A DNA stretch of 64,000 nt from Opitutaceae bacterium (GTDB taxonomy: Bacteria > Verrucomicrobiota > Verrucomicrobiia > Opitutales > Opitutaceae), in contig JBAZMN010000001.1 of NCBI GenBank assembly GCA_041649735.1, positions 509-64,508 of the forward strand, given 5' to 3'. Within the stretch, counting starts at the first letter, position 1. Every line of letters begins with the position of its first letter. The translations under genes were made by a program, and so were the position numbers. Shown in pieces: positions 6,816-42,793 of this stretch. The notes under the pieces are model-generated. The model worked only from the letters and a program-made list of their open reading frames with translations, searched no databases and had not been told where the DNA came from.

Positions 6816-7697
6816 CTAAGTGTGAACATCCGCCACGCCGCGCAGTTCGCCGACTGTTGTCGGATGGCATTGCTTGTAGGCCATGACGGCATCCGTGCCA
6901 CGATAGAATCCCGGCAACGGGACCAACGAGAACCCCAGCCACTGGTAGATTTTCTGCATCGGCTTGTTGTCTCCGCGCATGAATCCGTAGCACGTTCCCA
7001 CGGTGCTGCCGATGACCTTTTGTAGAATGTTGATGCTCCCATTCATGGCCGCCAGCCCGCCACGCCCGCGTACTTCGTCGCTGGTAGCTAGTTCGTAAAA
7101 CTCCACCGTGCCATCGTGACCGGCCCGATAAATCAGCGTGACACCATCCTGGACGATGGTATTGTGTGTGAAGTCTTCCGCATCATGCACGGCATCGATC
7201 ATGCGATAGCAGGTCGGAACGGTATACGACAGCAGCAATAGACGATCCGCCACGCGAAGCAATTCTGTTTCCATGAGTCGCCACGTCGCCGTGCCGAGTC
7301 TGTCCTTTACCATGCCGTCAAGTGAGCGGGCAATGCACATATCGAAGCTGCGATCGGGAAACGGTAGCTTTCGCAGGTCGGCCACGTCGAACGCTTTCCC
7401 GGGATTCCGCTTTCTGGCTTCCTGGATAAAGTCCGGCGACAGGTCGATTCCAACGTACTCTGCTTGCGGCAGAACCTCGCAAAGCGCCCCGTATCCACAC
7501 CCGGCGTCAAGTAAACGAGTCCCCGGCGGGATTAGTTTGGCCAGCAGTTCGCGGTGCGTCGCCTGAATGTTGTCCCATGCGCCTTGATTCACGTCGTAAA
7601 CAGAGCGGTGGATTTCGTTCTGTGCCAACGCTCTACGTAGCCGTGGCCGCCAGAATTGCGGATCGTCGATGTTGGTTTCACGCGACTTTAGATTCAT
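6816..7697 (-). CDS. Fusion of class I SAM methyltransferase and GNAT-like acetyltransferase
   Basis: LLDAGCGYGALCE...GIDLSPDFI...FDMCIARSL (Methyltransf_11-like) N-terminal half. C-terminal R-G-R-G..YQWLGF resembles a GNAT. Start is uncertain: 7697, 7724 or 7781. Confidence 0.65.
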   Translation of the reverse strand: MNLKSRETNIDDPQFWRPRLRRALAQNEIHRSVYDVNQGAWDNIQATHRELLAKLIPPGTRLLDAGCGYGALCEVLPQAEYVGIDLSPDFIQEARKRNPGKAFDVADLRKLPFPDRSFDMCIARSLDGMVKDRLGTATWRLMETELLRVADRLLLLSYTVPTCYRMIDAVHDAEDFTHNTIVQDGVTLIYRAGHDGTVEFYELATSDEVRGRGGLAAMNGSINILQKVIGSTVGTCYGFMRGDNKPMQKIYQWLGFSLVPLPGFYRGTDAVMAYKQCHPTTVGELRGVADVHT

Positions 7698-8547
7698 GCT
7701 GAAAAATCTCCGGTATCGGACCATGATAATCAACCACCGATGCCCGCCACGGCAATTCGTCGCCTGGCTGCCACGTCTCAAAGGCGGCTCGGCAGTTGAC
7801 GTACCTTTGCCGTTGGTCCCTCACGCCTTCGCCACGCGCTACGTAATAGCGATGCTTGGCGCTTCGCATGAGTTGGGATGATGCGAACCCAAGATGGACG
7901 CACTGCGGGGCCTGGTCGTAGTTGTCGTAACGCTGAATGGCCTTGTCCAGCGAACGGCCCGCAATGTCCGCTGGCGTGTTGTGGTTGTTCGCGTAGTGCA
8001 AACCATGCGACCACCGCCAGCCGCGACAGTGTGGTATGGCCCAGTAGCCGCCGACCACTTCCCGCCGAAACAGCGGCTCATGGAGGATGCTTGTCGGCCG
8101 CCAGATATGCCGCTGCTTGAGAAGAAAGCCACGATAGCGTTCGTTGGCCGCCTTCATGGTTTCCGCAAATAGCTTCTGGTGATGGTGCGTGTAGTATTCG
8201 TCGGCGTCCAAGACCGCAATAAAGTCGGGCCGCGTCAACTCCGCGACTTTCATATATTCCTGTCGAGAGGCGACCTTGCCTTGGGCCGGGTCGGTGTGTT
8301 TCGACAGGCCATAGGGAACATACACAACGCGGTGATCGTTGGCGGCCAAGTTCTGCAAATACTGCGAAGTGCCGTCGGTGGACAGTCCGGCGTCAGTCAC
8401 CAGCGACAGATTCGCCTTGGCGTACATCGAATCGGCCGACTCGACAAACACCCACCTATCGAGCCACGGCCAATCGTAATGCTGGGCGTAAAGTCTCGGC
8501 AAATGCTCCATCTCATTTAAGCAGAGCGTAGCCAGTAGAATCTTCAT
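7678..8547 (-). CDS. GT-A fold (family 2-like) glycosyltransferase
   Basis: MKILLATLCLNEMEHLP N-terminus and AVLDADEYY (DxD) motif. ATGA overlap with the upstream gene. Confidence 0.65.
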   Translation of the reverse strand: MKILLATLCLNEMEHLPRLYAQHYDWPWLDRWVFVESADSMYAKANLSLVTDAGLSTDGTSQYLQNLAANDHRVVYVPYGLSKHTDPAQGKVASRQEYMKVAELTRPDFIAVLDADEYYTHHHQKLFAETMKAANERYRGFLLKQRHIWRPTSILHEPLFRREVVGGYWAIPHCRGWRWSHGLHYANNHNTPADIAGRSLDKAIQRYDNYDQAPQCVHLGFASSQLMRSAKHRYYVARGEGVRDQRQRYVNCRAAFETWQPGDELPWRASVVDYHGPIPEIFQHESKVA

Positions 8548-9527
8548 GGCGACTTCTCCAGCGATTGCAGGTAGAGCGGCTTGAGGGCGTCCCAACTCAT
8601 GGACTCGGCCCACGCCCGCCCGCGTTGCGAGTAGGCCGTTATGTCGCGTTCATACCATTCGTCGATCGTGCGGGCGATTATGCGGGGATCAAGTACCGCC
8701 CGGTCAACCGTCACGGCGATCTTCGTTTTTTCGACGCCCGTGATCGGTATCAGCGGCTCGGCGGGCAGCCACTCCGTCATGGGGAATCGCTTGCTGGCCA
8801 TTACCAGCATCCCGCTGGCGTAGGCTTCCTGGAGCGGCAGCGAAAGGCCGTTGAATTTCTCGGGAAAGACAAACACGTCGCCATCGTAGAGCTTGTCGGC
8901 GGGCACGTTGTCAAGCACAAACGTAATGCGTTTGTCGCGGTTGCCGCGATACTTGTCGAACAGTCGCAGTATCTGTCGTTCGTCCGGCTGTCCGCGTACC
9001 GTTAAGTGGATCGGGCTTTGCACGTATCGCATCGCCTCCAATAGTTCCGGCGTGCCGTTGCGGTAGTTCGTGCCGCCGTGTCCAGCGTTGTGGATGAATT
9101 GCTTGGCGACCGTCCGCTGCTTCCACGGCACGTCAACGGGGACCGGCACAAACAGCGATGGCAAGTCTTTGTAGTATTGCAGGTCGAGCATCGACGGGCA
9201 CAGATACACGTCGGCCGGAACCGGCAGAGGCATCGGCGTCCATTCGTACATCGGCATCATGGCAATGCGGATTCCCTGCCGCCGTGCCGCTCTGACGATA
9301 TTCCAGTCAAAGGCGTTTTCAAGCAGGAATAGCACGTCCAGCCCGTGAAGAAAGTCACGGTGAGTTTCCACCGTGAAGCGGTTCTCTGACGGATACCACT
9401 CGGGATGGTTTTGGTAATGCGGGTGGCGAATCAGCAGGATGCGATTGACAATGCCGTGGTCGTAGAAAGACTTGGCGAGAATACCAAGCCCCGATTGCGT
9501 TGCGTAGCTGATGGCTCCGATATTCAT
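8544..9527 (-). CDS. GT-B fold (group 1 / GT4-like) glycosyltransferase
   Basis: C-terminal PEKFNGLSLPLQEAYASGMLVMAS (E-x7-E-like region). ATGA-coupled on both sides. Confidence 0.7.
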   Translation of the reverse strand: MNIGAISYATQSGLGILAKSFYDHGIVNRILLIRHPHYQNHPEWYPSENRFTVETHRDFLHGLDVLFLLENAFDWNIVRAARRQGIRIAMMPMYEWTPMPLPVPADVYLCPSMLDLQYYKDLPSLFVPVPVDVPWKQRTVAKQFIHNAGHGGTNYRNGTPELLEAMRYVQSPIHLTVRGQPDERQILRLFDKYRGNRDKRITFVLDNVPADKLYDGDVFVFPEKFNGLSLPLQEAYASGMLVMASKRFPMTEWLPAEPLIPITGVEKTKIAVTVDRAVLDPRIIARTIDEWYERDITAYSQRGRAWAESMSWDALKPLYLQSLEKSP

Positions 9528-10474: not shown

Positions 10475-10966
10475 TTATGGCGTCCCTGAGCCGGTCAGTT
10501 CTTCGGGGATTCCGTAGAACTCAAGGTTGAGCGCAAATGGAATGCGGGTGTTCGATCCCGAGTCTGGATTGAACGGCACTCCCCAATCCTCGACTCGATA
10601 GAATATCGAGGTGATGTCCGTTGTGATCGGGCACGGTTCGTTTCCGCCGTGATGCCAGAACACCGGCCGACTAGGAGTGACAATCAGCTCGCCGAAGTTC
10701 CAATCGTTGAAGCTGACGATAACTTGCGGCTTGGTTCCCGGCAGCAACGGCAGATAATAGTCGGTTTCCATGTTGATAAACATGGCGTGCAGATTATCCA
10801 GGAAAATTGAATAATCAAATCGCGACTGCCACCAGCCACCAGCAGCCATTTCGGGAGGAACCACGTGAATTTTCAGGCGGCCAAGGATGCTCGCATCGTA
10901 GGTGAATGTGTTCACCTTTGCGGCCTCGGCTCCGCTTTTCCATGATTGAGTTATTTGTAACGCCAT
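10475..10966 (-). CDS. Hypothetical protein
   Basis: ORF 1 nt downstream of the previous gene. No motif recognised. Confidence 0.55.
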   Translation of the reverse strand: MALQITQSWKSGAEAAKVNTFTYDASILGRLKIHVVPPEMAAGGWWQSRFDYSIFLDNLHAMFINMETDYYLPLLPGTKPQVIVSFNDWNFGELIVTPSRPVFWHHGGNEPCPITTDITSIFYRVEDWGVPFNPDSGSNTRIPFALNLEFYGIPEELTGSGTP

Positions 10967-11007
10967 GATCTAAACTCCAATTGTGTTGTGTGGTGATTGC
11001 TTGGTAA

Positions 11008-11847
11008 TTAGTTCGGCCGCGCTATCCGCATCGGTGGCGGAATGATACCGGCCTGACGCATTTCTTCCGCCGACAACGGGCCGCCCATCATCGGTTGCCC
11101 AGGGCCCATCGGCGGCCGGGCAAACTGTTGTGTCTGCGGCGGCCCCGCAAACGTGTCGGCTTCCGGCAAGTCAATGGCCCCTTCGGCCTTGAGTACGTTG
11201 GCAACTGCCGAAATAGCCCGGCTCTGTTGTACGCTCATTACGATGCCATCGGGCACGGCCTCGGTAAGGGCCTTGATGGCTTCCGTAGCGTTGGGGGCGA
11301 TGATGGCCCGGCTCTGCGGAATCTGATTGTCTGCGGTCACGAAAACAACTTGGTAGGCATACGCAATCATGTCACTCGCTCCTTTGGGAACTTCTGCTTT
11401 TGCGCCCCACTTGCCGACGGGGCACGATTCGGTCGCCATCTTGATCTTGTTCAAGACAGTGAGTTTAGAAAGGTTTACATTGCAGCCGCATTTCGAGCAT
11501 TTGCCGTCTACGAAATATTGGCAGGGCCTCGGCTTCGGGCGGCAGAACGTGTTGTAGATTTGCTCGACTTCCTCTTGGCTTCGCTTCGGCCGACCGGCCT
11601 TGTACCATCGCAGCAGGGCCTTGATGTAGGTCTTTGCCGTCTCGAAGGACACGCCCAGGTCGGCCGCCGCTTCCTTCGTCTGTTCCTCTGCTTCCGCCGT
11701 CATGGGAATCTCTTGCGGCGGCAGATAGCCGGGCCGCTTCATGGGTGGCATGGCCATCGGCCCCAAGTAGCCGTCGTTCATCGTCAGCGGTCTGCGAATC
11801 GAGCCGAGCATCTTGTTGATCGGGTGTGTTGGGTCTTGTGGTCGCAT
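11008..11847 (-). CDS. Hypothetical protein with Cys-cluster (CSKCGCN..CPVGKW) and Pro/Met/Gly-rich ends
   Basis: ATG at 11847 lies 1 nt after the giant gene stop; the track start at 11862 is TTG. Confidence 0.55.
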   Translation of the reverse strand: MRPQDPTHPINKMLGSIRRPLTMNDGYLGPMAMPPMKRPGYLPPQEIPMTAEAEEQTKEAAADLGVSFETAKTYIKALLRWYKAGRPKRSQEEVEQIYNTFCRPKPRPCQYFVDGKCSKCGCNVNLSKLTVLNKIKMATESCPVGKWGAKAEVPKGASDMIAYAYQVVFVTADNQIPQSRAIIAPNATEAIKALTEAVPDGIVMSVQQSRAISAVANVLKAEGAIDLPEADTFAGPPQTQQFARPPMGPGQPMMGGPLSAEEMRQAGIIPPPMRIARPN

Positions 11848-11848
11848 A

Positions 11849-14800
11849 TCATGCTTCCCCAATGTGGTGCGGAGTTAGTGAGTATTTCGAGCCGTCAACC
11901 AGTCCGCACGATTGCCAGTAATCGTCAATGATACATTCCAGTTTCTCTGGCACCACGCCCGATGCGATGCAGAAACTGTATCGCCAATTATCGTCGCTGC
12001 CCTGCCAGCACCAATCGAACAGCAGGCGAATGATGCAAGCGTTCTGCCTGCCAAGATTCGGCGTTGCCGACACAGCAATGGGGTAATGCTCGTTGACCCA
12101 GTAGTGCGTTTGCCCCAACACGTTCGGCCGATATTCCTCATAGGTCTGCGGTACGTTGGTGTAATTCTCTACCAGCCCGGCGGCAATCAGCCTGATGATC
12201 CATTCGCCGTTATCCTGGTCGATCTGGAACCAGTCTTTCGGCGTCATGTCGATGGTGGCGAACGTAAACCCGACGCCGGTAATGCTGGTGCTGGTGTTCC
12301 ACGCAAAGGTGATTTCGCCGAACAGCACGCTCTCGCCTTGGATGTCGATGTACAGCAGGATGCTATCGGTAGACTGCGTGGCGAGTACGTTTAGGTCTGG
12401 GTGCTGGTTGATCTTGCGAACGAGGATATTGATGGTTGCCGCCAGCGTAGCTTGCACGGGCACCGTATCGTCCCCGGTGTCCTGGTCTGAGGCGACGAAG
12501 GTAAACGGGACCGGCTCGTCAAATCCATTGGCGATAGAGAACTGTTCACCCGCTTGTACCTGCGTGGTGGCCGCCTGCGAATTGGCCAAGTCCACGATTT
12601 GCATTTCCACGTCGTAAACGAGGATGCAGCTTTCATCCATCGGATCGTTGGGAATGGCCCGCACGTTCAATACGTCGCTGTCGCATAGCTCATTGACTTG
12701 CGTCACGATGCCGCGAATCTTCTCAGTTTGATTGGCGGCAAGCTGGACGCTGGAGCCGTTGCTTACGCCCGATATAAACGTAATCGTGGCCGTGTGATCG
12801 TCGTCAACCTCAATAACAAACTCCGACCCAATCTGCGGTTCAATGACTTGCGTAGTGCTGTGTAATACGTCGTGGTACGTGAGCGTGCAACCATTGAACC
12901 AAGGCGCGATAACATACATGCGGCCCGCGTTACAGAACGTATCCCCGGCGGCCGTAACCACCGCTTGCATTACTTGGCCTTCCCACGGCAAATCAAAGTC
13001 AATCGCGTCGCACCACGCATCGGAGAAGGCAATTGGCGGCTGGTGCTTGATCGTGGTGAGGCCGATCATGTTGCCTTGCGGCTCTTGTTCCCAAGCGTGA
13101 ATCTTGAATACCGGCTCTAGCAATCCCTCCTGTTTGCAAACGTCCGTCATAAAGGCCGTGTTGATGGCGTCGTGAATCGCTTCGATCTGGCGGATGTCAT
13201 CGTCGATGATCGGAACGATAACGATTTCGGAAGCGGAGCCGGCCCCCAGCGTTGCGTCGCAGCCACCGTCCATTCCGTAAATCGTCAGCGGTTGCGTGGT
13301 GTCCATCGGGGCCGTCACCCACTCCTCGAATATCCGAGTGGTGAGGCTGGCGACGATGGCAATGTTTCCTTGCGGGCCGATGTGCTGGTTGATTAGCGTG
13401 AGGCGGCTACTACGTGTCCCCGCTCTCCTAACGTCGATGTCCAAGTCCCTGTCTGGTTCGGTGCCGTTGGCCATCCCGGTAGCGACGATGAACTGCGACG
13501 AATAGCCCAACGGTACATTGTTGTCACCCAGCAGCAGATTCGTCAGGTCGCACGTGGTTTCAGGACCGCCGCCGACGGCCGCCGACATGTAGAAGTTGGG
13601 AGTGCCGTTGACCGCCGCAACCAAGTTTGCCGCAGCGGCGTCCACGTCGGCGCCCATATCCACTTCAATGTAGCCTTCGGGAACACCGCCGCCCGTCGAG
13701 AACTGGTAGTTTTTGGTGGTGAAGCCATCGTTGATAAACACCCGGTCGCCTTCGCTGACTTGATGCGTGAACCAAAACGATCCCGTCGAGTGTGTGCCGG
13801 ACGTGGGATCGACGCCGCCGCTCATGCCAGTAGCGTAAATGGTGGCTGGGGTGCCCGATCCCACGCAATCCACGGTGATGTCATGGTTCCCGATGACGCC
13901 CGCGATGTTGTGCATCAGGCAGCACGTGCCGTCATTGTTGCCGAGCGAAGCCGTTACGCTGAGCGGGTTTGCGTTCGTGTTGACAGCTAAGATTAGCCGC
14001 TTGATCGTATCCTGTAGGTCGAAGCCGACCGCCACGCCCACGCGACTGACGGGCGTACCCGGCAATGACGATGATGGATCAAGCCCGCCGCTCATGCCGG
14101 TAATTGTAAAGCTGCCGCCAACGTGTTCGATGTCCACGTTTCCGGCTGCCAGCTTGCGGTCGTTCGTCAAGTGGACCGTGGCGTCGGCAAGGTACGTGTC
14201 TGGATCGGTGCCCGTACCGGACGCGATGGTGTCCGTCGAAGTAATATCTAGCAGGCGGCTTGTGTCGTTGATCGCAAAGGCCAGATTCGCCGCTGTTTCC
14301 TCTTTGTTTTCGCTACTGATCTCGACGGCCACATTTCCCGGCTGAGCGATGCCGTCGATAACCACAAACTCGAATGTGATCCAGGGATGCTTGGGGTTGC
14401 CATCCCACATTCGCAAGATCGTGCCGACGGTAGGCTGGCCGGTGAATTGGATTGTCCCCGTCGCGGCCGTGCCATCGTCGGTGAACTCGAATATCGAATC
14501 AAAGTGCGTTGGGATACCATCGTCGATGGTGATCGTGTCGCCCGGCTCGGGCTGTGCAGTGAATGTCAGTTTGCCTACCGCGTGCCGCCCGCTGGCTGAG
14601 TTGATTGCCGTTTCAATGGCCGCCGCCGTTTCGCTGTTGCCCCAGCCCAGCGTTACACCGATGTTGCCCGGCGTAATATCATCGCCGCCGTCTTCGCCGT
14701 CCACCATACCGTAGACGATGATATTGTCACCCGTTGTGCTGATCGCCTGATTACAAAGGGCAGACTTATGCAGACTGGTCAACACACAGAAGTCATCCGG

Positions 14801-17524
14801 CGGCACGCTGGCCGTTGCTGAGATGCCGATTCCCGTCAGGCCGTTAAGCTGGAATACAAAGTTGGCCATCGTTTCCACGCGGTCGATGCCAATAACGACG
14901 CCGACGTTTCCAGACAACAATGAACCGCTTGGGCCGTCCAGTCCGCCGACCATCCCGAGAACCTCGAAGGGCGGCCCGGCGTCCGGGTCAGGGTCCGTGA
15001 AACTCGGCCCACCGAACTGAATCGCGTGATTGCCTACGGTGCTGGCGTGGATGTTGACCAGCAAGAACCAATCGACTTCGCCGTTTGCCGTCCCCGTTCC
15101 CGTGCCTGTCCCCGTGCCGGTGCCGGTGCCCACCAGCGAAAAGTCATCCGCCACGATGTCCATATCGGCTGCGCTGTTGATGGCGTTGTAGAGGCTGGTG
15201 GCCGTGTCGCGTTGGGTCGCGCCGATAGGTATTTTGATGAACCTGTCCGACGCTACGATACCGATGTCGCCGAATGAGAATGTTTTGCGAGTATGGATGC
15301 CATCGTCCAAAACAATGAAGTCACCGGCTCGCGGCTGATCGAATACCTTGACCCAACCGTGGGCCGACGTGCCTGTTGTGAGTTCCAGCGTGAGTTGCTT
15401 GCGGCCGTCGTGGAGCGTAATCGTATCGCCGGATGCCGGGTTGTCGATAAACTGGACCGTGCCCCATGATGCCCGGCCTTGGTCAAACTCAAACGTAACG
15501 GGGCCGTGGCCGGTCACGCCGTCGGCCAGTCGGAACCAGTCGCCGTCGGCGGGCGGATACTCGACGGTGATCGAACCGCGTGCGGGAGCGCCGTTGCCGA
15601 CGAATTGGAACGTAGCAACGCACCCGTTGCTGTCGTTCATTTCCCAGCTAACGCCGTCGCGGATTGGTAGAATCCACCGCTGGTAGGTCGGGTTGGAATT
15701 TCCCTCCCCGTCGATTTCGTCGTGGAAATCGAAGTAGTAGAGGGAGCGTTGGTAAGTGGGCGTGACTCGCAGTTCCCAGTAGTCGATGTCTGCCGTGCCG
15801 CATCCTGTGTCTAGGCATTCATTTTCCAGATAACCCTGCGCGTTCGTGTTCCCCATCGACGCGCCATAGCAGTTTTGGCAGTCGGCGTAGCTCGCTCTCT
15901 TTATCAAGTTGACTTGGGCGTAGGAGTTAGTGAAGTCGGCGGAATGGCCGGTGTCGAGGCCGGTTGACCACGTGGGGTCGAACGGCAGCAGTTGATTGAT
16001 TTGGTCGGATGTCGGCTTGATGGCCCCCGGCACCGACCACGATTTCTGATAGGTCAGCACGCGCCAACGCGGTTCGGCCCCTAGCGGCCCGAGAATATAG
16101 GACAGGTCTGCACCGGTAACATAGACCTGAATCAGCGTGTCAATGCACCCAGTGCCGCGTGTCGGATTGTTGACCCATGACCAACGCCAGCCGAAGTAGC
16201 TCGGGAACGGGGCAATACAGCTTGTTGGCTTGGCGTAGAACATCGCCGTATTGAGGTAGCGATAATTCACCGTGACTTGATCGTGCTGCGGATCGACTTC
16301 CATCGGTGACTGCGCCAGAGTGCAATAGCATTCCTCGGGGCTGGTGATACCGACGAAGTTGACTTGAGCACAACAGATTCCATACGAAGGGATGTCGATG
16401 TCGGCCAGATTGTTGTCGCAAAACCGCTCCGGTGGGAAGCAGCAATCCATTCGCGGTTGCCGACGTTTCGACCACGAAATGCCGTAAGTGTAGTCGAGAT
16501 AGTACCACCCATTAGGAAATGCCGGCTCGCCCGTGCATGGCTTTGTCTCACCTCGGCAGTCGTAGTTGTAGTTCCACGGCATCAACGGGCCGGGGTCGCC
16601 GTGCGGGTAGCCTTCCGCAGTGTAGTAGAAGTTCTCCCAGCAGCAGTCGAACGCATCGTACTTGGAGCATTCGCCAGTCCAGCACGGCTGTTCGGACAGC
16701 AGATTTGGCGCGGGCGGGTCATACCAACCGGGAATTTCTGGTGCCAGCAAAACTTGCCCGTAGCCGCAACATGACCAACACCACGGATAGGGATTGTCGC
16801 CCAGCCATGCGTCCTTGACGCATTGCGGTATCCCATTTGGATAGCTGGAAATTACGTAGACGCCGTGCTGTTGCGAAATGGAACCGCTTTGCAATGACGG
16901 CAGTGTTTCGTAGACCTCAAAATATCCAACCACCGGATCATCCGTGGCGATGGTGTAGCGATAGTTGTCGCAGCCAGTGAACCACGTCCGACGAAACTCA
17001 GTGGTATAGCCGGGTCCATAGGGGCTGCCGTCAAACGTGTACACGTCTCCATAGGGTGCTGAACTGTGAACCAGATTCCCCTGGTAGACGCCGGTGAACA
17101 AGTTGCCTTTCGAGGGCTGGCAGGGTGGGCTTGGACATTGGTAAACATCTTCGTACCCTGACACCACTACCCAAATGCTGAGCGGTATCGAATCACCACC
17201 AAAGGCTGAGATGCAACTATCGGGGTCGCTGGGGTCTTCTTCAATCCAGCAGGTTTCAATGTACTCCTGCGATTCGGGGTCGTTGGGGTCGTAGAGAGGA
17301 TTCAGTTCATACCAACACTCAAACCACTCGTTGTAGTCGGCATACCAAAACAGCGTACCGACCGCCTCGCACGTGCGGATGTTGGTCTGGTAGTAGCAGA
17401 GCGAACCCCAGAAGCTGTAAAGCGGAATTGATAGCAGCAATTCAAAGACACTCTTGAACCGCCGCCCGCTCGCGTGCGGTGGCGTGAATGCGTGTCGGAG
17501 AAGTCTGCGGAGTAGGTTCAACAT
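11849..17524 (-). CDS. Giant (about 1,891 aa) modular tail-fibre / host-recognition-like protein
   Basis: Single ORF at the distal end of the tail module. The N-terminal ~560 aa and the C-terminal ~150 aa are rich in Cys, Trp, Tyr and Pro. The centre (about nt 12300-15544) holds ~9 degenerate modules. ATG at 17524 overlaps the upstream stop (TAATG). Confidence 0.75.
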   Translation of the reverse strand: MLNLLRRLLRHAFTPPHASGRRFKSVFELLLSIPLYSFWGSLCYYQTNIRTCEAVGTLFWYADYNEWFECWYELNPLYDPNDPESQEYIETCWIEEDPSDPDSCISAFGGDSIPLSIWVVVSGYEDVYQCPSPPCQPSKGNLFTGVYQGNLVHSSAPYGDVYTFDGSPYGPGYTTEFRRTWFTGCDNYRYTIATDDPVVGYFEVYETLPSLQSGSISQQHGVYVISSYPNGIPQCVKDAWLGDNPYPWCWSCCGYGQVLLAPEIPGWYDPPAPNLLSEQPCWTGECSKYDAFDCCWENFYYTAEGYPHGDPGPLMPWNYNYDCRGETKPCTGEPAFPNGWYYLDYTYGISWSKRRQPRMDCCFPPERFCDNNLADIDIPSYGICCAQVNFVGITSPEECYCTLAQSPMEVDPQHDQVTVNYRYLNTAMFYAKPTSCIAPFPSYFGWRWSWVNNPTRGTGCIDTLIQVYVTGADLSYILGPLGAEPRWRVLTYQKSWSVPGAIKPTSDQINQLLPFDPTWSTGLDTGHSADFTNSYAQVNLIKRASYADCQNCYGASMGNTNAQGYLENECLDTGCGTADIDYWELRVTPTYQRSLYYFDFHDEIDGEGNSNPTYQRWILPIRDGVSWEMNDSNGCVATFQFVGNGAPARGSITVEYPPADGDWFRLADGVTGHGPVTFEFDQGRASWGTVQFIDNPASGDTITLHDGRKQLTLELTTGTSAHGWVKVFDQPRAGDFIVLDDGIHTRKTFSFGDIGIVASDRFIKIPIGATQRDTATSLYNAINSAADMDIVADDFSLVGTGTGTGTGTGTGTANGEVDWFLLVNIHASTVGNHAIQFGGPSFTDPDPDAGPPFEVLGMVGGLDGPSGSLLSGNVGVVIGIDRVETMANFVFQLNGLTGIGISATASVPPDDFCVLTSLHKSALCNQAISTTGDNIIVYGMVDGEDGGDDITPGNIGVTLGWGNSETAAAIETAINSASGRHAVGKLTFTAQPEPGDTITIDDGIPTHFDSIFEFTDDGTAATGTIQFTGQPTVGTILRMWDGNPKHPWITFEFVVIDGIAQPGNVAVEISSENKEETAANLAFAINDTSRLLDITSTDTIASGTGTDPDTYLADATVHLTNDRKLAAGNVDIEHVGGSFTITGMSGGLDPSSSLPGTPVSRVGVAVGFDLQDTIKRLILAVNTNANPLSVTASLGNNDGTCCLMHNIAGVIGNHDITVDCVGSGTPATIYATGMSGGVDPTSGTHSTGSFWFTHQVSEGDRVFINDGFTTKNYQFSTGGGVPEGYIEVDMGADVDAAAANLVAAVNGTPNFYMSAAVGGGPETTCDLTNLLLGDNNVPLGYSSQFIVATGMANGTEPDRDLDIDVRRAGTRSSRLTLINQHIGPQGNIAIVASLTTRIFEEWVTAPMDTTQPLTIYGMDGGCDATLGAGSASEIVIVPIIDDDIRQIEAIHDAINTAFMTDVCKQEGLLEPVFKIHAWEQEPQGNMIGLTTIKHQPPIAFSDAWCDAIDFDLPWEGQVMQAVVTAAGDTFCNAGRMYVIAPWFNGCTLTYHDVLHSTTQVIEPQIGSEFVIEVDDDHTATITFISGVSNGSSVQLAANQTEKIRGIVTQVNELCDSDVLNVRAIPNDPMDESCILVYDVEMQIVDLANSQAATTQVQAGEQFSIANGFDEPVPFTFVASDQDTGDDTVPVQATLAATINILVRKINQHPDLNVLATQSTDSILLYIDIQGESVLFGEITFAWNTSTSITGVGFTFATIDMTPKDWFQIDQDNGEWIIRLIAAGLVENYTNVPQTYEEYRPNVLGQTHYWVNEHYPIAVSATPNLGRQNACIIRLLFDWCWQGSDDNWRYSFCIASGVVPEKLECIIDDYWQSCGLVDGSKYSLTPHHIGEA
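15089..15130 (-). repeat. Imperfect hexanucleotide repeat encoding (Gly-Thr)x7
   Basis: GGC ACC GGC ACC GGC ACG GGG ACA GGC ACG GGA ACG GGG ACG on the coding strand. Confidence 0.9.
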
Positions 17525-18393
17525 TATGACAACAAGCACGGTGCCCCAACAACGAAGAACTTTCTCGCATTCGGCCAGTAGTCAACGATGACCGGCGTAA
17601 AAGGCGGAATCGTCTGGCCTGGTGCCAACAGGTGATCGTGGGCCGTTTTGATTGTCAGCCCGGCACTATTGATAAGCAGCGCCACGGCCGCCGATTGGCC
17701 GTAAGGCATTCCGCCGCGGCGCATAATGAAGCCTGGAAAACTCAACTGCTGCGACATGCGATGCGTTATCATCACGTACTTAGGGCCACCGACTAGCCCT
17801 TCGTAGCCGTTGGTGTCGGAGTAGCCGTCCACGGCCACGGATGAACACTGAACAATGTCACCGGCCCACGCGGGTAGTTGCAGGCTCGGGTCGATAACAA
17901 TCACCGTCGAGGTTGTATTGACTTGACCTTCTTCGGGGTCGTATAGAAATCCGGCGTCCAGCAGTTCCAGCGGATTAGCCAAGGATGAATAGGTGTCATC
18001 ATCCATGTCCCGCAGCATCAGGTAATAGTTCGTGCTGACGGAACCGCCCGCGACGGCCAGCCACTTGCCGAACTTGTCGCGGTTCACCTGGAACCAGCCG
18101 CTGGTAATGGCGGTTGCCGAGAGGTTGTAAATCGCTCGCATGATGCCGGCGGAAATCAGCGTTGGTACGCCGGTCACTTCGACGATCTTGTAAATGTCGC
18201 ACTCCGCTTGGCCCGGCGTGGTGCCGCTTAACGCCGGTAGGCCGCCGCTCGGAGCCTGAGCCACGTACACATCCGGCGTCTGGCCCGGTAGACTGAGGCT
18301 CGTTGACGCAGCTCTATTTTGTGGACGGGCACGCCACTGGGCGAGGATGCGCCGCAAGTCGCGATGGTCTTCCTCAGTCAGAAATTTGGCCAT
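17524..18393 (-). CDS. Tail-tip/baseplate-like protein, short paralog
   Basis: Shares FLTEEDHRDLRRI.., PDVYVA, CDIYKIV, WFQVNRDKFGKWLAVAGGS and RMSQQLSFPGF blocks with the 18393-19754 product. Confidence 0.65.
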   Translation of the reverse strand: MAKFLTEEDHRDLRRILAQWRARPQNRAASTSLSLPGQTPDVYVAQAPSGGLPALSGTTPGQAECDIYKIVEVTGVPTLISAGIMRAIYNLSATAITSGWFQVNRDKFGKWLAVAGGSVSTNYYLMLRDMDDDTYSSLANPLELLDAGFLYDPEEGQVNTTSTVIVIDPSLQLPAWAGDIVQCSSVAVDGYSDTNGYEGLVGGPKYVMITHRMSQQLSFPGFIMRRGGMPYGQSAAVALLINSAGLTIKTAHDHLLAPGQTIPPFTPVIVDYWPNARKFFVVGAPCLLS

Positions 18394-19754
18394 TACCGAC
18401 ACCCCGCATGGTTGCCGTACCACTGAGCTAGGTTTGACCAATGGGTCGCCAGAAACTTGGTGCCTGTCGGAATGCACTGGGGCGACGTGGAGGCCGGAAT
18501 CAGGTAATTGAGAATCGCGTGCTTTCTGCTTTCCTCCATTACCGGAAATACCAACTCTTCATTTTCTTCGTCCCAGCCTATTGTGTCGGTGTAAACCGTA
18601 GAAATCGGCGGCACGGCCCCGATGACGTACTGACACTCCGGCCCGCAATACTCGATAAGGTCGCCGCACATCGGGCCGCCAAGCACGCCGGGAAACCGCA
18701 ACTGCTGCGACATCCGGCTGGTGAGCCGGCAGAACTTTCGTTGCCCGGTACTTGGCGCCAGCCCTAGCGGGTCTTCGATACCGGCTTCACCACCCGCCAT
18801 GCCGCTGACCAGCACGCGGTCTTCGCAACTGGAAACGATTGGCTTGTTGCCCCACGGCCCGTAGACTAGATTGATAAGGTGGACCGTGTTGACGGCACCC
18901 AGCTCGGCATAGATGAACAGATTCAGGTCCAAGTCCACGGCATAAATGAAACTGTTCACAATCGTCGCCAGCGGCGTTGGGTCGGCAATGTCCGGCAACG
19001 CCACCTTGATATTCCCGTTCGCCAAAAGCTGGCCGTTAGCAACGCCCAACTCGTTATCATCAAACTCGAATATCGTCGAGGGGATGTGCCCGCCATCGTC
19101 CAGGATGATTTGCATTCCGTCCAGCGGCAATTCGTAGAAGGTAATGTCGCCGGTCGGCGGGGTGCCAGCGAATCGTGTTTCCTCTTCGGCAATAACGATG
19201 TCGCCACGCCAACACGGAGACATCGTTGACACGTCTACGATTATGACAGTAGTGCCTACTGTGACCTCTCCGTCGAACGAGTCCACCCAGCGGCCATCAA
19301 CCATCGCCACCGGATTCGCTCGACCCATCGGCAGGTACATGGGATTCCCGGCCTGCGCCTCCATATCGTCCAAGACCTTGAAAAACGACACGCTCGCGCT
19401 TCCGGTTGCCACCAGCCAGCGGCCAAACTTGTCGCGGTTGATTTGGAACCACGTATCCGGCTGGATGGCATTGGCGGAAATGTTGTACACGTCCCGGTCG
19501 GTTCCCGCCTGAATCAGCGTTGCCGCCCCGGTTTCGTCCGGCACGATCTTGTACACGTCGGCCTTGGCCCGGCTCGGCACGCCACCAGCAGCACCGTCCA
19601 GCGTTTGGCCGTCTTGCAGCTTGGCGACATAGATGTCCGGCGTAACGGTTTCCTGCTGAGGTGTCTCGGGCTGTTGGGGATTGAACTCGCCCGCCCGGTA
19701 CGACTTCACCAGCCGTTGCAATTCGTGTTGATCTTTCTCACTGAGGTAGAACAT
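18393..19754 (-). CDS. Tail-tip/baseplate-like protein, long paralog with an inserted fibre-type module
   Basis: Same conserved blocks as the short paralog. An extra ~120 aa (nt 18789-19151) matches the GDxIxxxDG..FEF / ..AV.. / GMAGG module of the giant protein. Confidence 0.65.
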   Translation of the reverse strand: MFYLSEKDQHELQRLVKSYRAGEFNPQQPETPQQETVTPDIYVAKLQDGQTLDGAAGGVPSRAKADVYKIVPDETGAATLIQAGTDRDVYNISANAIQPDTWFQINRDKFGRWLVATGSASVSFFKVLDDMEAQAGNPMYLPMGRANPVAMVDGRWVDSFDGEVTVGTTVIIVDVSTMSPCWRGDIVIAEEETRFAGTPPTGDITFYELPLDGMQIILDDGGHIPSTIFEFDDNELGVANGQLLANGNIKVALPDIADPTPLATIVNSFIYAVDLDLNLFIYAELGAVNTVHLINLVYGPWGNKPIVSSCEDRVLVSGMAGGEAGIEDPLGLAPSTGQRKFCRLTSRMSQQLRFPGVLGGPMCGDLIEYCGPECQYVIGAVPPISTVYTDTIGWDEENEELVFPVMEESRKHAILNYLIPASTSPQCIPTGTKFLATHWSNLAQWYGNHAGCR

Positions 19755-19756
19755 AG

Positions 19757-20212
19757 CTAGCGCGGCATGAGGCAGAGCGAAGCACGGATATTGCCGTGGA
19801 GACTGCGAATTGACAGGCGGCTTGCATTGCGTGGCACGGCCCGCATGGATTCGCCCGGCATGATAAGCCAACTGGCGTCGGAATCGTTTGCATCGAAGGC
19901 CACCTGGATAATCCGCTGGGCCAGCTCACTCGCCTCCGCTGGCGTTGGGATTTTGCCCGGCGTGTCGCCTTCTTTGTTGCGAATCAGCAGCAGGCCGGGG
20001 TTGTTGACCCAGCCGCAATCCAAGGCCATCCATTTTTCCGTGATAAGCAGTTCGCGGATGTAGGGCTGTTCGTCGCTGTTGAGTTTGCGACTGCAACGGG
20101 TGACAAACTCAACCGGCTCCCCTCCCTGCCGCTGATGGTAGACGTGTTCGACGATGGTAACGCGATTTCGAGACGCGGGGCTTTCCGCCGTGATAGTCTT
20201 TGCGCCCAGCAT
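19757..20212 (-). CDS. Hypothetical tail-associated protein
   Basis: ORF within the tail module. No motif recognised. Confidence 0.5.
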   Translation of the reverse strand: MLGAKTITAESPASRNRVTIVEHVYHQRQGGEPVEFVTRCSRKLNSDEQPYIRELLITEKWMALDCGWVNNPGLLLIRNKEGDTPGKIPTPAEASELAQRIIQVAFDANDSDASWLIMPGESMRAVPRNASRLSIRSLHGNIRASLCLMPR

Positions 20213-24537: not shown

Positions 24538-24984
24538 TTACTGTGTTTGCCGCAGTGACACCACGGCGTTGATGGTGAACAATCGTCGGCCCGTGTTCGG
24601 CTCCTCTCCGATGTCGAACACGTCGCCGATGTGAGCGAAGCAATGCACGCTGTACTGGCTGCTTTCAATGGTCACTGTCGCACGCCGGATGTCCTTGGCC
24701 AGCGTCGCGCGGATAGCATCGGCCTTGCGGTATCCGGTCTTGGGGTCGCTGTCCCGCACGGAAATCTGGATACCGTAATGGCCCAGCATTTCGCCGCTCT
24801 GCATGTCGCGGCCGTCGCCGGTCCCCGCAGTGTTGTAAACGACAATCAGCTTGTCTGGTTGGTCTGGCGACAGCGTTGCGAAAATCGGCCAGTCGCCACC
24901 GACCGACGGAAGAACGCCGAGATTCACGGCAATCAACAGATTCCGCGTAACATCCGCCGGTGAGTGGGTTAGTCCGTTGCTCAT
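24538..24984 (-). CDS. Tail terminator / tail completion protein (candidate)
   Basis: Lies between the gp10-like gene and the tube gene. ATGA-coupled. Confidence 0.5.
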   Translation of the reverse strand: MSNGLTHSPADVTRNLLIAVNLGVLPSVGGDWPIFATLSPDQPDKLIVVYNTAGTGDGRDMQSGEMLGHYGIQISVRDSDPKTGYRKADAIRATLAKDIRRATVTIESSQYSVHCFAHIGDVFDIGEEPNTGRRLFTINAVVSLRQTQ

Positions 24985-29343: not shown

Positions 29344-30759
29344 TTAGCGGCGTCGTTGTCGAGGGTGAAAATATCCGTCGTTCGTTTGCGGCATTGGTTC
29401 CCAATCGTTTGGTTCGCGGCAATCGACGGCCGACGGTTCGGGCTGTTGGATGTCCCGCGTGATGATGCACGCATACCACACGCCGCGTCGGCTCCTGGCC
29501 ATGCCGCTGCCGTACTCGCTGTGCTTGCGGCTGGCGACCGACCAATGGCCGGGCGACTGACGCCAGCAATCAAACATTTCCGCCCACAATTCCGCCGGCG
29601 GATCCTCGGCCTGTCGCGGCCAGCTTTCCGCACAGATTTCGCGGTAGTCGCCCGGGCCGATGCTGTTGAGCATCTGCTGCCGCCGCTGGTCGAAATTTTG
29701 ATGGCCCTGCTTGTCGGCTTCCGCCTGATAGTTCGCGTGAGACTGGGCAAAAGAACATAGCGAAGCGTTCACCTTCGACTTCAGCACGTCGGCCGATTGG
29801 CCGTCTTTGCTTGCGTAACTGAAACCTTCGGGCACCTGGCCGCCGACTTGCGGCTTCTCCGGCTCGGCTCGTTTCGTGCTGAACGCATAGGCGTGAATTT
29901 CCGTCGTACTGACATAAACCGCCTTCGTCCACCGGCTACGGTCGCCGTTCTGGCAGGTGAACACGGCCATTCGCGGGATCGACCCCGGGCCGGTCAACTG
30001 ATTGGCAAACGCCTGTTCGCGGTCCAAATTGACACATGCGACATGGCCCTTCCGCCGCAACTGCGGCAACCACTCATGGACCTGCTTGCACGGCGTACAC
30101 CAGTCGGCCGTAACGATCACCAGCAACGGCCGGCCGTCCCGCTTGGCCGCATCGCTGGCCAATGAGTATCGTTCGGTCGGTAAAAAGTCCCTGTCGATCG
30201 ACTCGGGCTGCGTCATGCTCGACTTTGGCAGACCATCGTCTTTCGGCTGCTTGACCGTCTCGGCCGGCTTCGGCTTCTCCGGTTGCGGTTTCGCTTTTGG
30301 CGGTTCTGCCTTTGGCGGTTCGGACAGCTTCTCGACCCGCTGCTTTAATGCGTCGATGGCCGATTGGCTTGCGGCAAACGCCTGATGCAATTTTGCCCCA
30401 GACTGTTCAAGTCGAATCATCCGCTGGCCCAATTCCTCGATGCCGTCGATCTTCGCTACGGCTCCGTCGATGCGGCCAACGAGCGAATCAATCTTCGTCG
30501 AAAGTTTTCCGACGTCGGCCGATGTCGCTGCCACTCGCTTATCCACGTCGCTGATGGCCAGCGTCATGCACTTATCCAAGTCGGCGACGTGCCTCTGGAC
30601 GGCCTCCACGGGATCGGGTTTCGCGGCCGGCGTCGGCTGCGGTTCGGGCGCCTGCGACTCTACCTGTGCATTCCAGATTGCGGGGTTCAGCCGCAATTCA
30701 CTGTCCGGCTGGTTGCATCCGACCAAGAACATCGAAAATATAATTACTACATTTCGCAT
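29344..30759 (-). CDS. Lipoprotein with coiled coil, thioredoxin-fold (WCTPC) domain and CAP/SCP-like C-terminal domain
   Basis: MRNVVIIFSMFLVGC lipobox. LLVIVTADWCTPCKQV thioredoxin motif. C-terminal ..FDCWRQSPGHWSVA..YGSGMA..GVWYACIIT resembles CAP/YkwD. Confidence 0.65.
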   Translation of the reverse strand: MRNVVIIFSMFLVGCNQPDSELRLNPAIWNAQVESQAPEPQPTPAAKPDPVEAVQRHVADLDKCMTLAISDVDKRVAATSADVGKLSTKIDSLVGRIDGAVAKIDGIEELGQRMIRLEQSGAKLHQAFAASQSAIDALKQRVEKLSEPPKAEPPKAKPQPEKPKPAETVKQPKDDGLPKSSMTQPESIDRDFLPTERYSLASDAAKRDGRPLLVIVTADWCTPCKQVHEWLPQLRRKGHVACVNLDREQAFANQLTGPGSIPRMAVFTCQNGDRSRWTKAVYVSTTEIHAYAFSTKRAEPEKPQVGGQVPEGFSYASKDGQSADVLKSKVNASLCSFAQSHANYQAEADKQGHQNFDQRRQQMLNSIGPGDYREICAESWPRQAEDPPAELWAEMFDCWRQSPGHWSVASRKHSEYGSGMARSRRGVWYACIITRDIQQPEPSAVDCREPNDWEPMPQTNDGYFHPRQRRR

Positions 30760-30774
30760 TACTTCGCTCACCTC

Positions 30775-42298: not shown

Positions 42299-42793
42299 CT
42301 ATTCTCCCTTGTGTATGGTTGGTGGCGTTTCGGACAATTCCGTCAACGCCGATTCGCAATCGTGTAATTCCTGCCGAAAAAGTTCTACTTGCTGAGTCAA
42401 GGTATCTAGGTCGATGTCAGTCGAAACCGTGTGGGCCATGCCCGCTTCGTCCGATTGCCGAAATGCCTGCTGTAGCGGCAGGCTCTTGGCGTCCTGCCAT
42501 CGTTGTAGGCCGGTCAATCGCCGTTCGGCATACAGTAGTCGCTGCCGTGCGTTTTCGTGGCGGATCGACCAATATGCGTGCTTCCGTGTGGCCAGTTCGC
42601 TTGGCGACTCTGCCGGCGGCCACTCGGGTCCGGCGTAGTCGGTCGCACTGTATTGCCAGCCATCGCTAAACAGCAGCCGCCCGGCGTGCATTACCGGCTC
42701 GCCGTGTGCTTGGCAGAATCGCAGAAAATACGCCCGCCAGTCGAGGCGAATCTTGATCGTGCCGTCGTTGGCGTTGTGGATTGCCACTAACAC
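42299..42793 (-). CDS. Hypothetical protein between terminase and portal
   Basis: ORF with a GTG start overlapping the TerL stop. Confidence 0.5.
   Translation of the reverse strand: MLVAIHNANDGTIKIRLDWRAYFLRFCQAHGEPVMHAGRLLFSDGWQYSATDYAGPEWPPAESPSELATRKHAYWSIRHENARQRLLYAERRLTGLQRWQDAKSLPLQQAFRQSDEAGMAHTVSTDIDLDTLTQQVELFRQELHDCESALTELSETPPTIHKGE

Follow-up and report, generated by a model that had tools for sequence, protein, structure and literature searches.

In flagellin the chain runs outwards and back through nested domains D0-D3, and Ig-like-type accessory domains are reportedly displayed on phage virions. Some phage sheath proteins, among them those of Agrobacterium phage Milano (gp20), cyanophage A-1(L) and Vibrio phage XM1, likewise carry an exposed alpha/beta domain of ~110 aa that is inserted in another domain, giving a nested topology. 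In Milano gp20 this sheath extension domain (SED) spans residues 91-203 (PMC10811340), and the sheath insertion domain of XM1 resembles domain D3 of FliD and was proposed by its authors to be a host-derived acquisition (PMC10457771). Our own literature searches, on nested domains in sheath proteins and on the sample accessions, were unproductive. Here we describe a 1,891-aa giant, encoded in the window (the whole 64,000-nt stretch of DNA analysed), whose repeated units find their nearest characterised relatives, by weak but convergent matches, in the external sheath extension/insertion domain and, more remotely, in the IN-motif outer domains of FliD and flagellin. On balance we favour the view that it is a large, probably virion-associated tail-distal protein in which nested ~110-aa domains, flanked by private caps, form an exposed cluster for decoration or adhesion. 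Evenly poised, in our judgement, is the broader proposition that the repeated unit, termed A+B below, is a self-nesting mobile module of ~110 aa and defines an unnamed superfamily linking sheath extension domains, the outer (IN-motif) domains of flagellin/FliD and phage decoration or fibre proteins, with Russian-doll arrays of up to seven layers in more than 1,000 phage and bacterial clusters, the giant being the most elaborate seen.

The giant is encoded by an uninterrupted ORF that opens with ATG (a GTG alternative start lies at 17539), and two public assemblies call the gene identically, with 0 mismatches in 5,676 nt; the ORF is real. A diversity-generating or hypervariable locus was also considered, the identical pair of assemblies offering no variation to compare. 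The ATG shares 1 nt with the stop codon of the gene before it. The same-strand order is terminase, portal, protease, capsid-like protein, tail terminator and then the giant, followed by glycosyltransferase (GT1, GT2) and methyltransferase genes on that strand at 6816-9527; GC content is uniform across the giant gene and its neighbours. A thioredoxin-like/CAP protein is encoded at 29344-30771. Gene order and analogy suggest an uncultivated, long-tailed phage with the giant probably associated with the virion; the source samples are ENA ERZ27247363 and SRA SRR8542065. The earlier label 'tail protein' can be kept in the sense of a modular giant whose gene lies distally in a phage structural operon, 'tail' itself being taken from gene order only. 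Neighbouring tail genes mostly lack annotation from database matches: PDB sequence searches with the 625-aa ORF, the 368-aa ORF and n317 returned no matches, and no sheath family was matched among the ORFs scanned in the window. Portal-based relatives in IMG/VR were either too distant or on contigs that end before the tail region. One neighbour, n492, contains a single A+B domain, whereas its paralog n317 (17524-18477) does not, so the domain is an insertion in n492. The gene and this neighbouring domain are as follows.

11849..17524, minus strand: whole gene, 1,891 aa plus the stop codon at 11849-11851.
18789..19163, minus strand: single A+B domain inside n492 (ORF 18393-19871), placed by the family profile and by paralog comparison.

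Searches with the giant as query gave 0 hits in PHROGs, no match by tblastn against 50,697 cultured phage records, nothing significant among PDB sequences (phmmer), no homolog in a word-indexed search and no relatives in IMG/VR. Families of tail fibre, tailspike, central fibre, tip and receptor-binding proteins did not match it in Pfam, PHROGs or PDB, and a known fibre family, which would have told against the original prediction, was not among its matches there.

Repetition is restricted to aa ~646-1741 (nt 12302-15589), in agreement with the span of 12300-15544 proposed before. In segment Smith-Waterman comparisons against a shuffled null, 45 pairs of 100-aa segments exceeded the 99.5% shuffled threshold where 3 were expected, and the top pair scored 101 against a null maximum of 54; internal periodicity is thus statistically supported. 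When the giant was compared with itself by BLASTP, no HSP appeared off the diagonal. Leave-one-out profiles scored the copies at 13.5-36.8 bits (shuffled maximum, 13.6), each clear copy being found by a profile from the remaining copies and outscoring 999 of its own shuffles, and profiles of the wider family locate all copies within the giant. Tandem repeats of module length are absent from the gene at the DNA level, and recent slippage or recombination as the origin of the array is therefore rejected. The core had been expected to consist of about nine three-part tandem units of ~100-120 aa; instead it is built of two module types in the irregular order AAA-BB-b / AABB / AB / b. Module A (~36 aa) is a beta-hairpin part with the motif GD.I.I.DG...FEF, and module B (~76-110 aa) an alpha/beta part with the motifs GNV.V.IG, TA.NL..AIN, GN..I and GM.GG. 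The giant holds 6 A, 5 intact B and 1 B split in two halves, and then 2 degenerate A+B units, or about eight domains in all, six complete and two degenerate. The core is rich in Thr. The example peptides quoted in the original prediction lie at aa 995-1014, 1076-1098 and 1139-1147, and the three motif classes recognized there are indeed conserved motifs of the domain family. From N- to C-terminus, the protein is laid out as follows.

15590..17524, minus strand: N-terminal cap, aa 1-645; it contains 32 Cys, is enriched in Trp, Tyr and Pro, and has its only conserved counterpart in the ortholog P0003.
15476..15589, minus strand: A module, aa 646-683, proposed to form the outermost layer of nest 1 and to have the split B as its partner.
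15368..15475, minus strand: A module, aa 684-719, middle layer of nest 1.
15269..15367, minus strand: A module, aa 720-752, the inmost A of nest 1 and directly followed by B753.
14942..15268, minus strand: B module, aa 753-861, its loops carrying insertions, among them a (Gly-Thr)7 run.
14696..14941, minus strand: B module, aa 862-943, mapped by profile.
14585..14695, minus strand: N-terminal half of the split B, aa 944-980, a strand and an IN-like helix covering B-profile positions 3-31 only.
14471..14584, minus strand: A module, aa 981-1018, the outer A layer of A2B2; it opens the insertion of 374 aa that P0003 lacks.
14354..14470, minus strand: A module, aa 1019-1057, inner A of the A2B2 nest.
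14084..14353, minus strand: B module, aa 1058-1147, inner B of the A2B2 nest, modelled together with A1019.
13814..14083, minus strand: B module, aa 1148-1237, outer B of the A2B2 nest.
13688..13795, minus strand: A module, aa 1244-1279, mapped by profile.
13463..13687, minus strand: B module, aa 1280-1354, mapped by profile.
13262..13462, minus strand: C-terminal half of the split B, aa 1355-1421, covering B-profile positions 32-76 only.
12815..13261, minus strand: middle region, aa 1422-1570, conserved in P0003, with a weak IN-like strand-helix element at aa ~1436-1461 that is not significant.
12605..12814, minus strand: degenerate A+B unit, aa 1571-1640, marginal (E 0.017).
12302..12568, minus strand: degenerate A+B unit, aa 1653-1741, recognised by the family profile at E 1.2e-9.
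11852..12301, minus strand: C-terminal cap, aa 1742-1891 (150 aa), rich in Cys, Trp and Tyr.

Structure prediction indicates that one A and one B together make a single domain. AlphaFold folds A1019+B1058 (aa 1019-1147) into one compact domain of ~110 aa (pLDDT 91.5, pTM 0.86), the single-module model that the original prediction had proposed as a check, and the best match of this model in BFVD is an uncharacterised phage protein (TM 0.79, query-normalised; E 1e-10). Its N-terminal part A is three-stranded, with the motif G.I.F...P.DGD.I.I.DG....FEF, and its C-terminal alpha/beta part B runs through GNV.V.IG, the helix TA.NL..AIN, strands, GN..I and GM.GG. In the model of the A2B2 block (aa 981-1237; pLDDT 88.1, pTM 0.76), the outer A (pLDDT 89-95) and outer B (88-97) are also predicted with confidence.

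The A+B family is large and unnamed: it comprises 1,605 cluster representatives at E<=1e-3, of which 414 remain at E<=1e-10, and has no significant match to any Pfam, NCBIfam or PHROGs model. Many members match profile positions 2-114 as one stretch, and the giant belongs to the family by both the A+B profile and the motifs GD.I.I.DG..FEF, TA.NL..AIN, GN..I and GM.GG. The domain occurs within proteins that have tail-sheath Pfam domains (the relatives P0009, P0012 and P0027 among them) and within one that has Baseplate_J; its two ends must therefore lie close together. Relatives are also found in gp13 and gp17 of Rhodobacter phage RcTitan and in large cellular proteins with PD40, Big_7, PKD and DUF4214/4215 domains. 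A tblastn search with one canonical domain against cultured phages found no match, and a word-indexed homolog search with a 58-sequence family alignment returned only 3 proteins; the existence of P0003 shows that this type of search misses relatives at ~30% identity. The family alignments contain no conserved block of 7-10 columns. In its distribution the domain is analogous to the Ig-like, BACON and FN3 domains, small promiscuous surface domains that turn up as additions or insertions in many structural proteins and also in proteins of the bacterial surface. It differs from them in having a different, alpha/beta fold and in apparently multiplying by self-nesting rather than by simple tandem addition.

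The split B and the ortholog P0003 bear directly on how the copies are arranged. The two half-Bs, which lie 374 residues apart, are exactly complementary in the profile positions that they cover, and when spliced together they score 50 bits, against 49 and 53 for two intact Bs in the same run. P0003, a 1,205-aa metagenomic protein from a contig of 4,998 bp (Logan SRR28415871), is 31% identical to the giant over 922 aa (E 3e-84), is followed by a weakly homologous gene of ~280 aa, and is the sole protein found to share the N cap, the middle region and the C cap. In contrast to the giant, it has an A3B3 block with the outermost B intact and one degenerate A+B unit only, and it lacks the three-domain insertion: the extra residues of the giant begin exactly at P0003 position 832, and giant residues 1363-1421 align with P0003 833-875. 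Under strict criteria, no further split-B case was found among 150 hits. These data weigh on the idea of a linear head-to-tail array in which about nine modules of ~100-120 aa form a beads-on-a-string or rod-like tail fibre shaft between the caps. The repeats are certainly genuine over ~1,080 aa, about nine B-like elements can be reached if halves and degenerate copies are counted, and tandem ABAB occurs in 24 of the 150 best hits of the family. Yet A and B are contiguous in only three units of the giant, the halves of the interrupted B are joined in P0003, and the balance of A and B across the family argues for pairing across intervening copies; we consider a linear shaft decidedly unlikely.

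That balance is seen in 31 of 50 multi-copy blocks with equal numbers of A and B (16.1+-2.7 by permutation, family-wide), and the modules form balanced bracket words in 62 of 91 arrays with >=4 modules, against 18.7+-3.7 in shuffled order. Balanced arrays include A7B7, A5B5 and, in a sheath protein, A[AB][AB]B, and the giant itself has equal numbers when its split B is counted with the intact ones. About one-third of the family arrays are unbalanced and B-only runs are present; these may represent detection failures, gene fragments or a B able to stand alone. Read as brackets, the A and B modules of the giant are best read as nested domain-in-domain insertions, with the proposed layout A646[A684[A720-B753]B862]B944a{[A981[A1019-B1058]B1148][A1244-B1280]}B1355b. 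We infer from this sequence logic, not from coordinates, that the copies are nested and not strung in tandem, each new copy having entered an older one either at its A/B hinge or in the loop that leads from helix to strand in its B. The giant would then contain three nesting levels plus a three-domain insertion splitting a B unit, and its chain would run out and back, as in flagellin and the sheath proteins, to build a compact branched cluster of surface domains.

Bracket pairing could be challenged by treating A and B as independent repeats that either form separate stacks or pair in the same order, A(i) with B(i), in an intertwined manner. When congruence between A and B similarities was compared for nested and same-order pairing, 6 of 13 arrays came out for nesting, and significance was reached in both directions. 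The two A7B7 arrays point to nesting (r 0.90, p 0.002; r 0.37, p 0.057) and one A5B5 array to same-order pairing (r 0.72, p 0.008). The last case speaks for independence, as do A-only runs and the B-only runs and unbalanced arrays noted above. On the other hand, the inner A-B of A2B2 is predicted to fold as a complete domain with the same fold as stand-alone members, and branched words such as A[AB][AB]B exist. In arrays, A is joined to B by a junction no longer than that of single domains, and with same-order pairing the partners in A5B5 and A7B7 would probably lie several domain diameters apart. Moreover, arrays inserted in sheath-Pfam proteins need adjacent ends, which nesting supplies. Independent repeats thus seem to us an unlikely account of the arrays.

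The relationship of the nested domains to sheath and flagellar proteins was seen with both profiles and structures, each link being individually weak (E 1e-3 to 0.1, TM 0.3-0.47). Family profile A2 gave a significant but weak match to Milano gp20 (8fop_T) at residues 117-171 (E 7.4e-4), which falls within the SED, and PHROGs phrog_165 'tail sheath' was matched by 3 of 58 family members. The top PDB structure in Foldseek was the A-1(L) sheath, 8kee_A, itself a weak match (E 0.023, probability 0.99, TM 0.47 over 127 columns); 8kee_C (E 1.2e-3) and the Milano sheath 8fop_j (E 0.02) were also retrieved, none at E<=1e-3. FliD of P. aeruginosa (5fhy_A) was matched by the single-domain model (E 0.024, TM 0.40) and by the A2B2 model (E 8.5e-3), for which ranks 2 and 4-14 were all FliD or flagellin entries, each of them weak. 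Some A+B members, moreover, place 2-3 modules between N- and C-terminal sheath domains. The sheath relationship is nevertheless remote (13-16% identity, TM 0.3-0.47): the giant lacks handshake and body domains and any sheath match in Pfam or PHROGs, and carries the domain 6-8 times, apparently inside itself, between Cys-rich caps. The element of part B made up of a strand, a helix leading to ...A(I/V)N and two further strands resembles the IN motif of flagellin and FliD (5FHY; E. coli FliD 5H5V; Sphingomonas flagellin 2ZBI/3K8V), and the nested out-and-back topology proposed here would be common to both.

The IN-motif resemblance proposed in the original prediction accordingly stands as a remote one, at the level of the fold and of the family, and not for the giant as such, which has 0 Pfam families at E<=1, Flagellin_IN (PF07196) included. 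A stronger version would hold that the modules are true Flagellin_IN domains captured from host flagellin or FliD, for example for flagellar mimicry or flagellotropic adsorption. Flagellin_IN is the commonest Pfam match among the relatives, a weak one (8/58, best E 0.0019), NCBIfam FliD is matched by 1/58 family members, and the flagellin chain 9atl_A is reached by the family profile at E 0.09; entries for FliD and flagellin come up repeatedly among the best structural matches, and a host origin was also proposed for the XM1 sheath domain. Against capture, multi-B relatives gave no PF07196 match at E<=0.01, part A has no IN-motif counterpart, and the sheath signal (E 7e-4) is stronger than the flagellin signal. 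The modules also belong to a family of their own, GC content does not set the gene apart from its neighbours, and the giant sits in a phage structural operon and lacks the D0/D1 terminal helices, with no Flagellin_N/C or FliD_N/C match in Pfam. We regard capture of a genuine Flagellin_IN domain as very improbable.

The caps that flank the nested core are of a different nature. Over aa 1-645, the N cap contains 5.0% Cys, 3.9% Trp, 8.1% Tyr and 8.5% Pro, against 2.1, 2.0, 2.7 and 5.6% in other long minus-strand ORFs, and the enrichment in Cys, Trp and Tyr recurs in the C-terminal 150 aa; both the Cys/Trp/Tyr/Pro-rich start and the presence of caps at both ends had been predicted correctly. In P0003, 18 of the 22 Cys of the N cap align to Cys of the giant, and residues 1763-1888 of the C cap are 31% identical to P0003 1097-1201. 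A word-indexed homolog search with the N-cap alignment found nothing, and JGI metagenomes yielded no relatives of this cap. The caps would be private to a small lineage, are probably stabilised by disulfides, and presumably serve virion attachment and/or receptor contact. The domain cluster between them may offer an exposed decoration or low-affinity adhesion surface, analogous to the Ig-like domains on phage virions, and gene position and family context suggest that the whole protein functions in adhesion or decoration at the surface of the distal tail. That it is not exposed at all, being instead an internal or ejected protein or a late product that modifies the host surface, seems to us extremely improbable. 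The sugar- and methyl-transferring enzymes encoded after it on the same strand and the presence of the domain in PD40, Big_7 and PKD cellular proteins would fit such a role. However, the gene lies within the structural operon, after the tail genes and overlapping the gene before it; in other phages the domain is carried by proteins of the sheath and baseplate J-like type and by others associated with the virion; and the abundance of Cys would suit an extracellular, disulfide-stabilised protein.

If the nested arrangement is true, the giant would represent an unusually deep and recurrent self-insertion of a domain, and balanced A/B brackets would provide a simple parsing rule for a large set of unannotated phage and bacterial surface proteins. 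It would also provide both name and structural model for a domain found on sheath, baseplate and other virion-associated proteins as well as on fibre-like giants, and would tie the flagellar 'IN motif' to the extension domains of phage sheaths. A family profile would annotate about 1,600 clusters that are now 'hypothetical' and would mark sites on virions that are exposed, probably dispensable and open to engineering.

The internal repetition of the giant protein (1,891 residues) is real. In Smith-Waterman comparisons, 45 pairs of its 100-residue segments scored above the 99.5th percentile of the shuffled null, against 3 expected, with best scores of 101, 94 and 92 and a null maximum of 54. 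Each clear copy was also found by a profile of the remaining copies, at 13.5–36.8 bits (best of 999 shuffles, 6.7–13.6 bits). All segment pairs above threshold fall in residues 601–1750, the interval that matches the repeat span of nt 12300–15544 in the original prediction, and the example peptides and motif classes named there are found in the protein. The proposed three-part unit, repeated nine times, gave way to two module types, a β-hairpin (A) and an α/β module (B).

Modules of the giant protein (residue numbers)
646, 684, 720, 981, 1019, 1244: starts of A modules, about 36 residues each
753, 862, 1058, 1148, 1280: starts of intact B modules, 76–110 residues each
944–980 and 1355–1421: B halves
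1571–1640: degenerate A+B (E 0.017)
1653–1741: degenerate A+B (E 1.2e-9)

A DNA-level tandem repeat of module length is absent from the gene, so the duplications must be old.

A and B together form one domain, belonging to a large family. Run against 1.84 billion proteins, a profile built from units of the window matched 1,605 cluster representatives at E≤1e-3, of which 414 passed 1e-10 and 26 passed 1e-30, and many matches span profile positions 2–114 continuously. The AlphaFold2 model of residues 1019–1147 (58-sequence alignment; pLDDT 91.5, pTM 0.86) contains, in order, three strands, one strand, a 14-residue helix and four more strands interrupted by a short helix. No model in Pfam, NCBIfam or PHROGs significantly matches the family. 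The giant itself has no Pfam match at E≤1, and by this standard test its membership of PF07196, raised by a perceived likeness to the flagellin hook IN motif, was not borne out. Yet this likeness may reflect a remote fold-level relationship, as the weak profile matches of the family and the Foldseek ranks suggest. Among weak Pfam matches in the family, Flagellin_IN recurs most often (in 8 of 58 members; best E 0.0019), and the family profile matched a flagellin chain at E 0.09 and residues 117–171 of the Milano sheath protein gp20 at E 7e-4. The latter segment falls within the external sheath extension domain (residues 91–203), itself an insertion in the body domain (PMC10811340). In Foldseek searches of the PDB, the single domain ranked the cyanophage A-1(L) sheath first (E 0.023) and Pseudomonas aeruginosa FliD second (E 0.024), while the top 14 matches of a two-domain (A2B2) model were all phage sheaths or FliD/flagellin outer domains (E 1.2e-3 to 0.66). 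The closest characterised relative of the A+B domain appears to be the sheath extension domain, not flagellin.

Other phages display this domain on exposed virion proteins, and large cellular proteins of several domains, among them PD40, Big_7, PKD, DUF4214 or DUF4215, carry it too. Foldseek against BFVD gave ten matches at E≤1e-3 (TM up to 0.79), mostly uncharacterised phage proteins and one baseplate J-like protein; weaker, lower-ranked matches include a tail sheath and a major capsid protein. The baseplate J-like P0014 carries the domain, and three metagenomic proteins with tail-sheath Pfam domains have modules between their N- and C-terminal sheath domains (P0009, A3B3; P0012, A[AB][AB]B; P0027, ABAB). 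These three are T4-type sheath proteins with two or three A+B domains at the expected site of the outer domains. Cultured-phage sheaths cover just 50–60% of P0012 in alignment. The domain is also present in two proteins, annotated as hypothetical, of Rhodobacter phage RcTitan (KR935213), a cultured system in which it could be tested.

8559–9128: RcTitan gp13, 189 aa, after the capsid gene, A+B at E 2.5e-10
10535–12748: RcTitan gp17, 737 aa, in the major-tail-protein position, A+B at E ~1e-9

Two ORFs just upstream of the giant gene are paralogous, with 38% identity over 211 aa (E 3e-37), and the second differs from the first mainly by one complete A+B domain. Within this genome, the pair illustrates how the domain behaves as a mobile insertion.

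17524–18477 (-): n317
18393–19871 (-): n492, with the A+B insertion at 18789–19163 (-)

Common arrays in the family are AABB, AAABBB, A4B4, A5B5 and A7B7. Of 50 multi-copy blocks, 31 contain as many A as B modules, where permutation gives 16.1±2.7 (maximum 26 in 10,000). With A read as an opening and B as a closing bracket, 62 of 91 arrays of at least four modules are balanced, against 18.7±3.7 with shuffled order; branched words such as that of P0012 also exist. Since the domain recurs as an insertion, in n492 as well as between the N- and C-terminal sheath domains of P0009, P0012 and P0027, its ends must be adjacent. A-to-B junctions are as short in arrays as in single domains. In the A2B2 block of the giant (residues 981–1237; pLDDT 88.1, pTM 0.76), the outer A and outer B are modelled confidently, and the inner contiguous pair, modelled alone, gives a complete domain fold.

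The two B halves are complementary: residues 944–980 cover only positions 3–31 of the 76-position B profile and residues 1355–1421 only positions 32–76. Spliced, they give a full-length match of 50 bits, with 49 and 53 bits for two intact B modules in the same run. P0003, a metagenomic ortholog of 1,205 residues (31% identity over 922 aa, E 3e-84), carries an A3B3 block in which the last B is intact. The 374 extra residues of the giant (981–1354, three A+B domains) start exactly opposite P0003 residue 832, and P0003 residues 833–875 align with giant residues 1363–1421. The giant therefore has six A and six B parts in residues 646–1421, and the split B and its intact counterpart directly demonstrate insertion of whole domains into a loop of another domain. 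Taken with the balanced arrays, insertions, junctions and models, they make out-and-back nesting the simplest topology. The layout would then be A646[A684[A720-B753]B862]B944a{[A981[A1019-B1058]B1148][A1244-B1280]}B1355b, where the pairing of A with B is suggested by bracket order; a similarity-congruence test of such pairing across arrays had a mixed outcome.

The window is a phage genome of even GC content (0.54–0.60 in 4-kb windows), whose portal shares no more than 33% identity with the portal of any cultured phage. The giant gene sits in its structural operon.

42787–44364 (-): large terminase, same strand as the giant
40757–42295 (-): portal, same strand
37890–39272 (-): protease/scaffold, same strand
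36111–37277 (-): capsid-like protein, same strand
24538–24984 (-): tail terminator, same strand
11849–17539 (-): uninterrupted giant ORF; ATG at 17524 gives 1,891 aa (ORF listing)

The terminator is followed by tail-region genes that could not be annotated and then by the giant, whose ATG overlaps the upstream stop codon by one base. Behind the terminator, the gene series of 163, 141, 80, 625 and 346 aa looks siphovirus-like, and no sheath family matched among the window ORFs scanned. An identical giant gene with the same called boundaries is present in two independent public assemblies, ENA contig ERZ27247363:k141_3028779 (65,360 bp) and a Logan contig from SRR8542065. A (Gly-Thr)7 run in the variable loop of the B module at residue 753 (15086–15131 (-), residues 798–812) is coded by an imperfect 6-nt repeat, equal in copy number in both assemblies. 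Other genes were observed as follows.

57971–59029 (-): RecT-like single-strand annealing protein (phrog_2449, E 1e-58), marking a replication/recombination module
52899–52971 (-): tRNA-like gene (ARAGORN), amino acid undetermined, 2-nt 'anticodon' (tc)
34058–34999 (-): 313-aa ORF between capsid and tail genes, with weak DnaJ-type CxxCxGxG zinc-finger and staphylococcal-nuclease-like matches
25355–27835 (-): 826-aa ORF upstream of the tail terminator with a right-handed β-helix region (Pfam Beta_helix, E 1e-6), an odd location, between head and tail genes, for a tailspike-like protein
11008–11847 (-): 279-aa gene after the giant, with a weak DUF6171-like Cys motif (E 0.003)
8544–9527, 7678–8613 and 6816–7781 (-): GT1-like and GT2-like glycosyltransferases and a SAM methyltransferase, after the giant on the same strand (6816–9527)

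The C-terminal ~100 residues of the 279-aa protein are weakly homologous (E 4e-5) to a 285-aa gene product behind P0003 (3782–4639 of its locus, L003); the two genes form a conserved pair, and the 279-aa product is possibly an assembly factor. Together with the Thr-rich repeat core (10.5% Thr), the nearby glycosyltransferase and methyltransferase genes make virion glycosylation possible.

The predicted richness of the N-terminal cap (residues 1–645, 32 Cys) held for all four residues: Cys 5.0, Trp 3.9, Tyr 8.1 and Pro 8.5%, against a background of 2.1, 2.0, 2.7 and 5.6%. In P0003, 18 of the 22 N-cap Cys align with Cys of the giant, and the C-terminal ~130 residues are also conserved (31% identity), Cys and Trp included. 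The caps are common to these two proteins only: BLAST of both, with the 150 top family hits as targets, matched P0003 alone, and queries with the giant or its N-cap found no further relative in the PDB, IMG/VR, JGI metagenomes or a 5.8-billion-protein index, searches that covered the C-terminal cap solely through the full-length protein. The structural operon also contains a 475-aa ORF (29344–30771 (-)) with thioredoxin-like (E 1.2e-6) and CAP/cysteine-rich secretory protein (E 2.8e-4) domains. With the ~2% Cys across long ORFs of the window, it hints that the phage itself provides for oxidative folding of Cys-rich proteins of the virion, a speculative role with which it is compatible.

The original observation thus stands for the repetition and the caps and its interpretation only in part, as the nine-fold unit and PF07196 do not. 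The giant showed no match to an enzymatic or receptor-binding family. From its place in the structural operon and by analogy with other carriers of the domain, it is probably a tail-distal, surface-exposed protein for decoration or adhesion, in which the caps would give attachment and/or receptor contact and the nested core would offer a multivalent surface. The giant is not a categorically new system; it belongs to a large domain family that has no name and is distantly linked with sheath extension domains and the outer domains of flagellar proteins, and its architecture is apparently bracket-balanced and self-nested, which makes it more interesting than a simple repeat.
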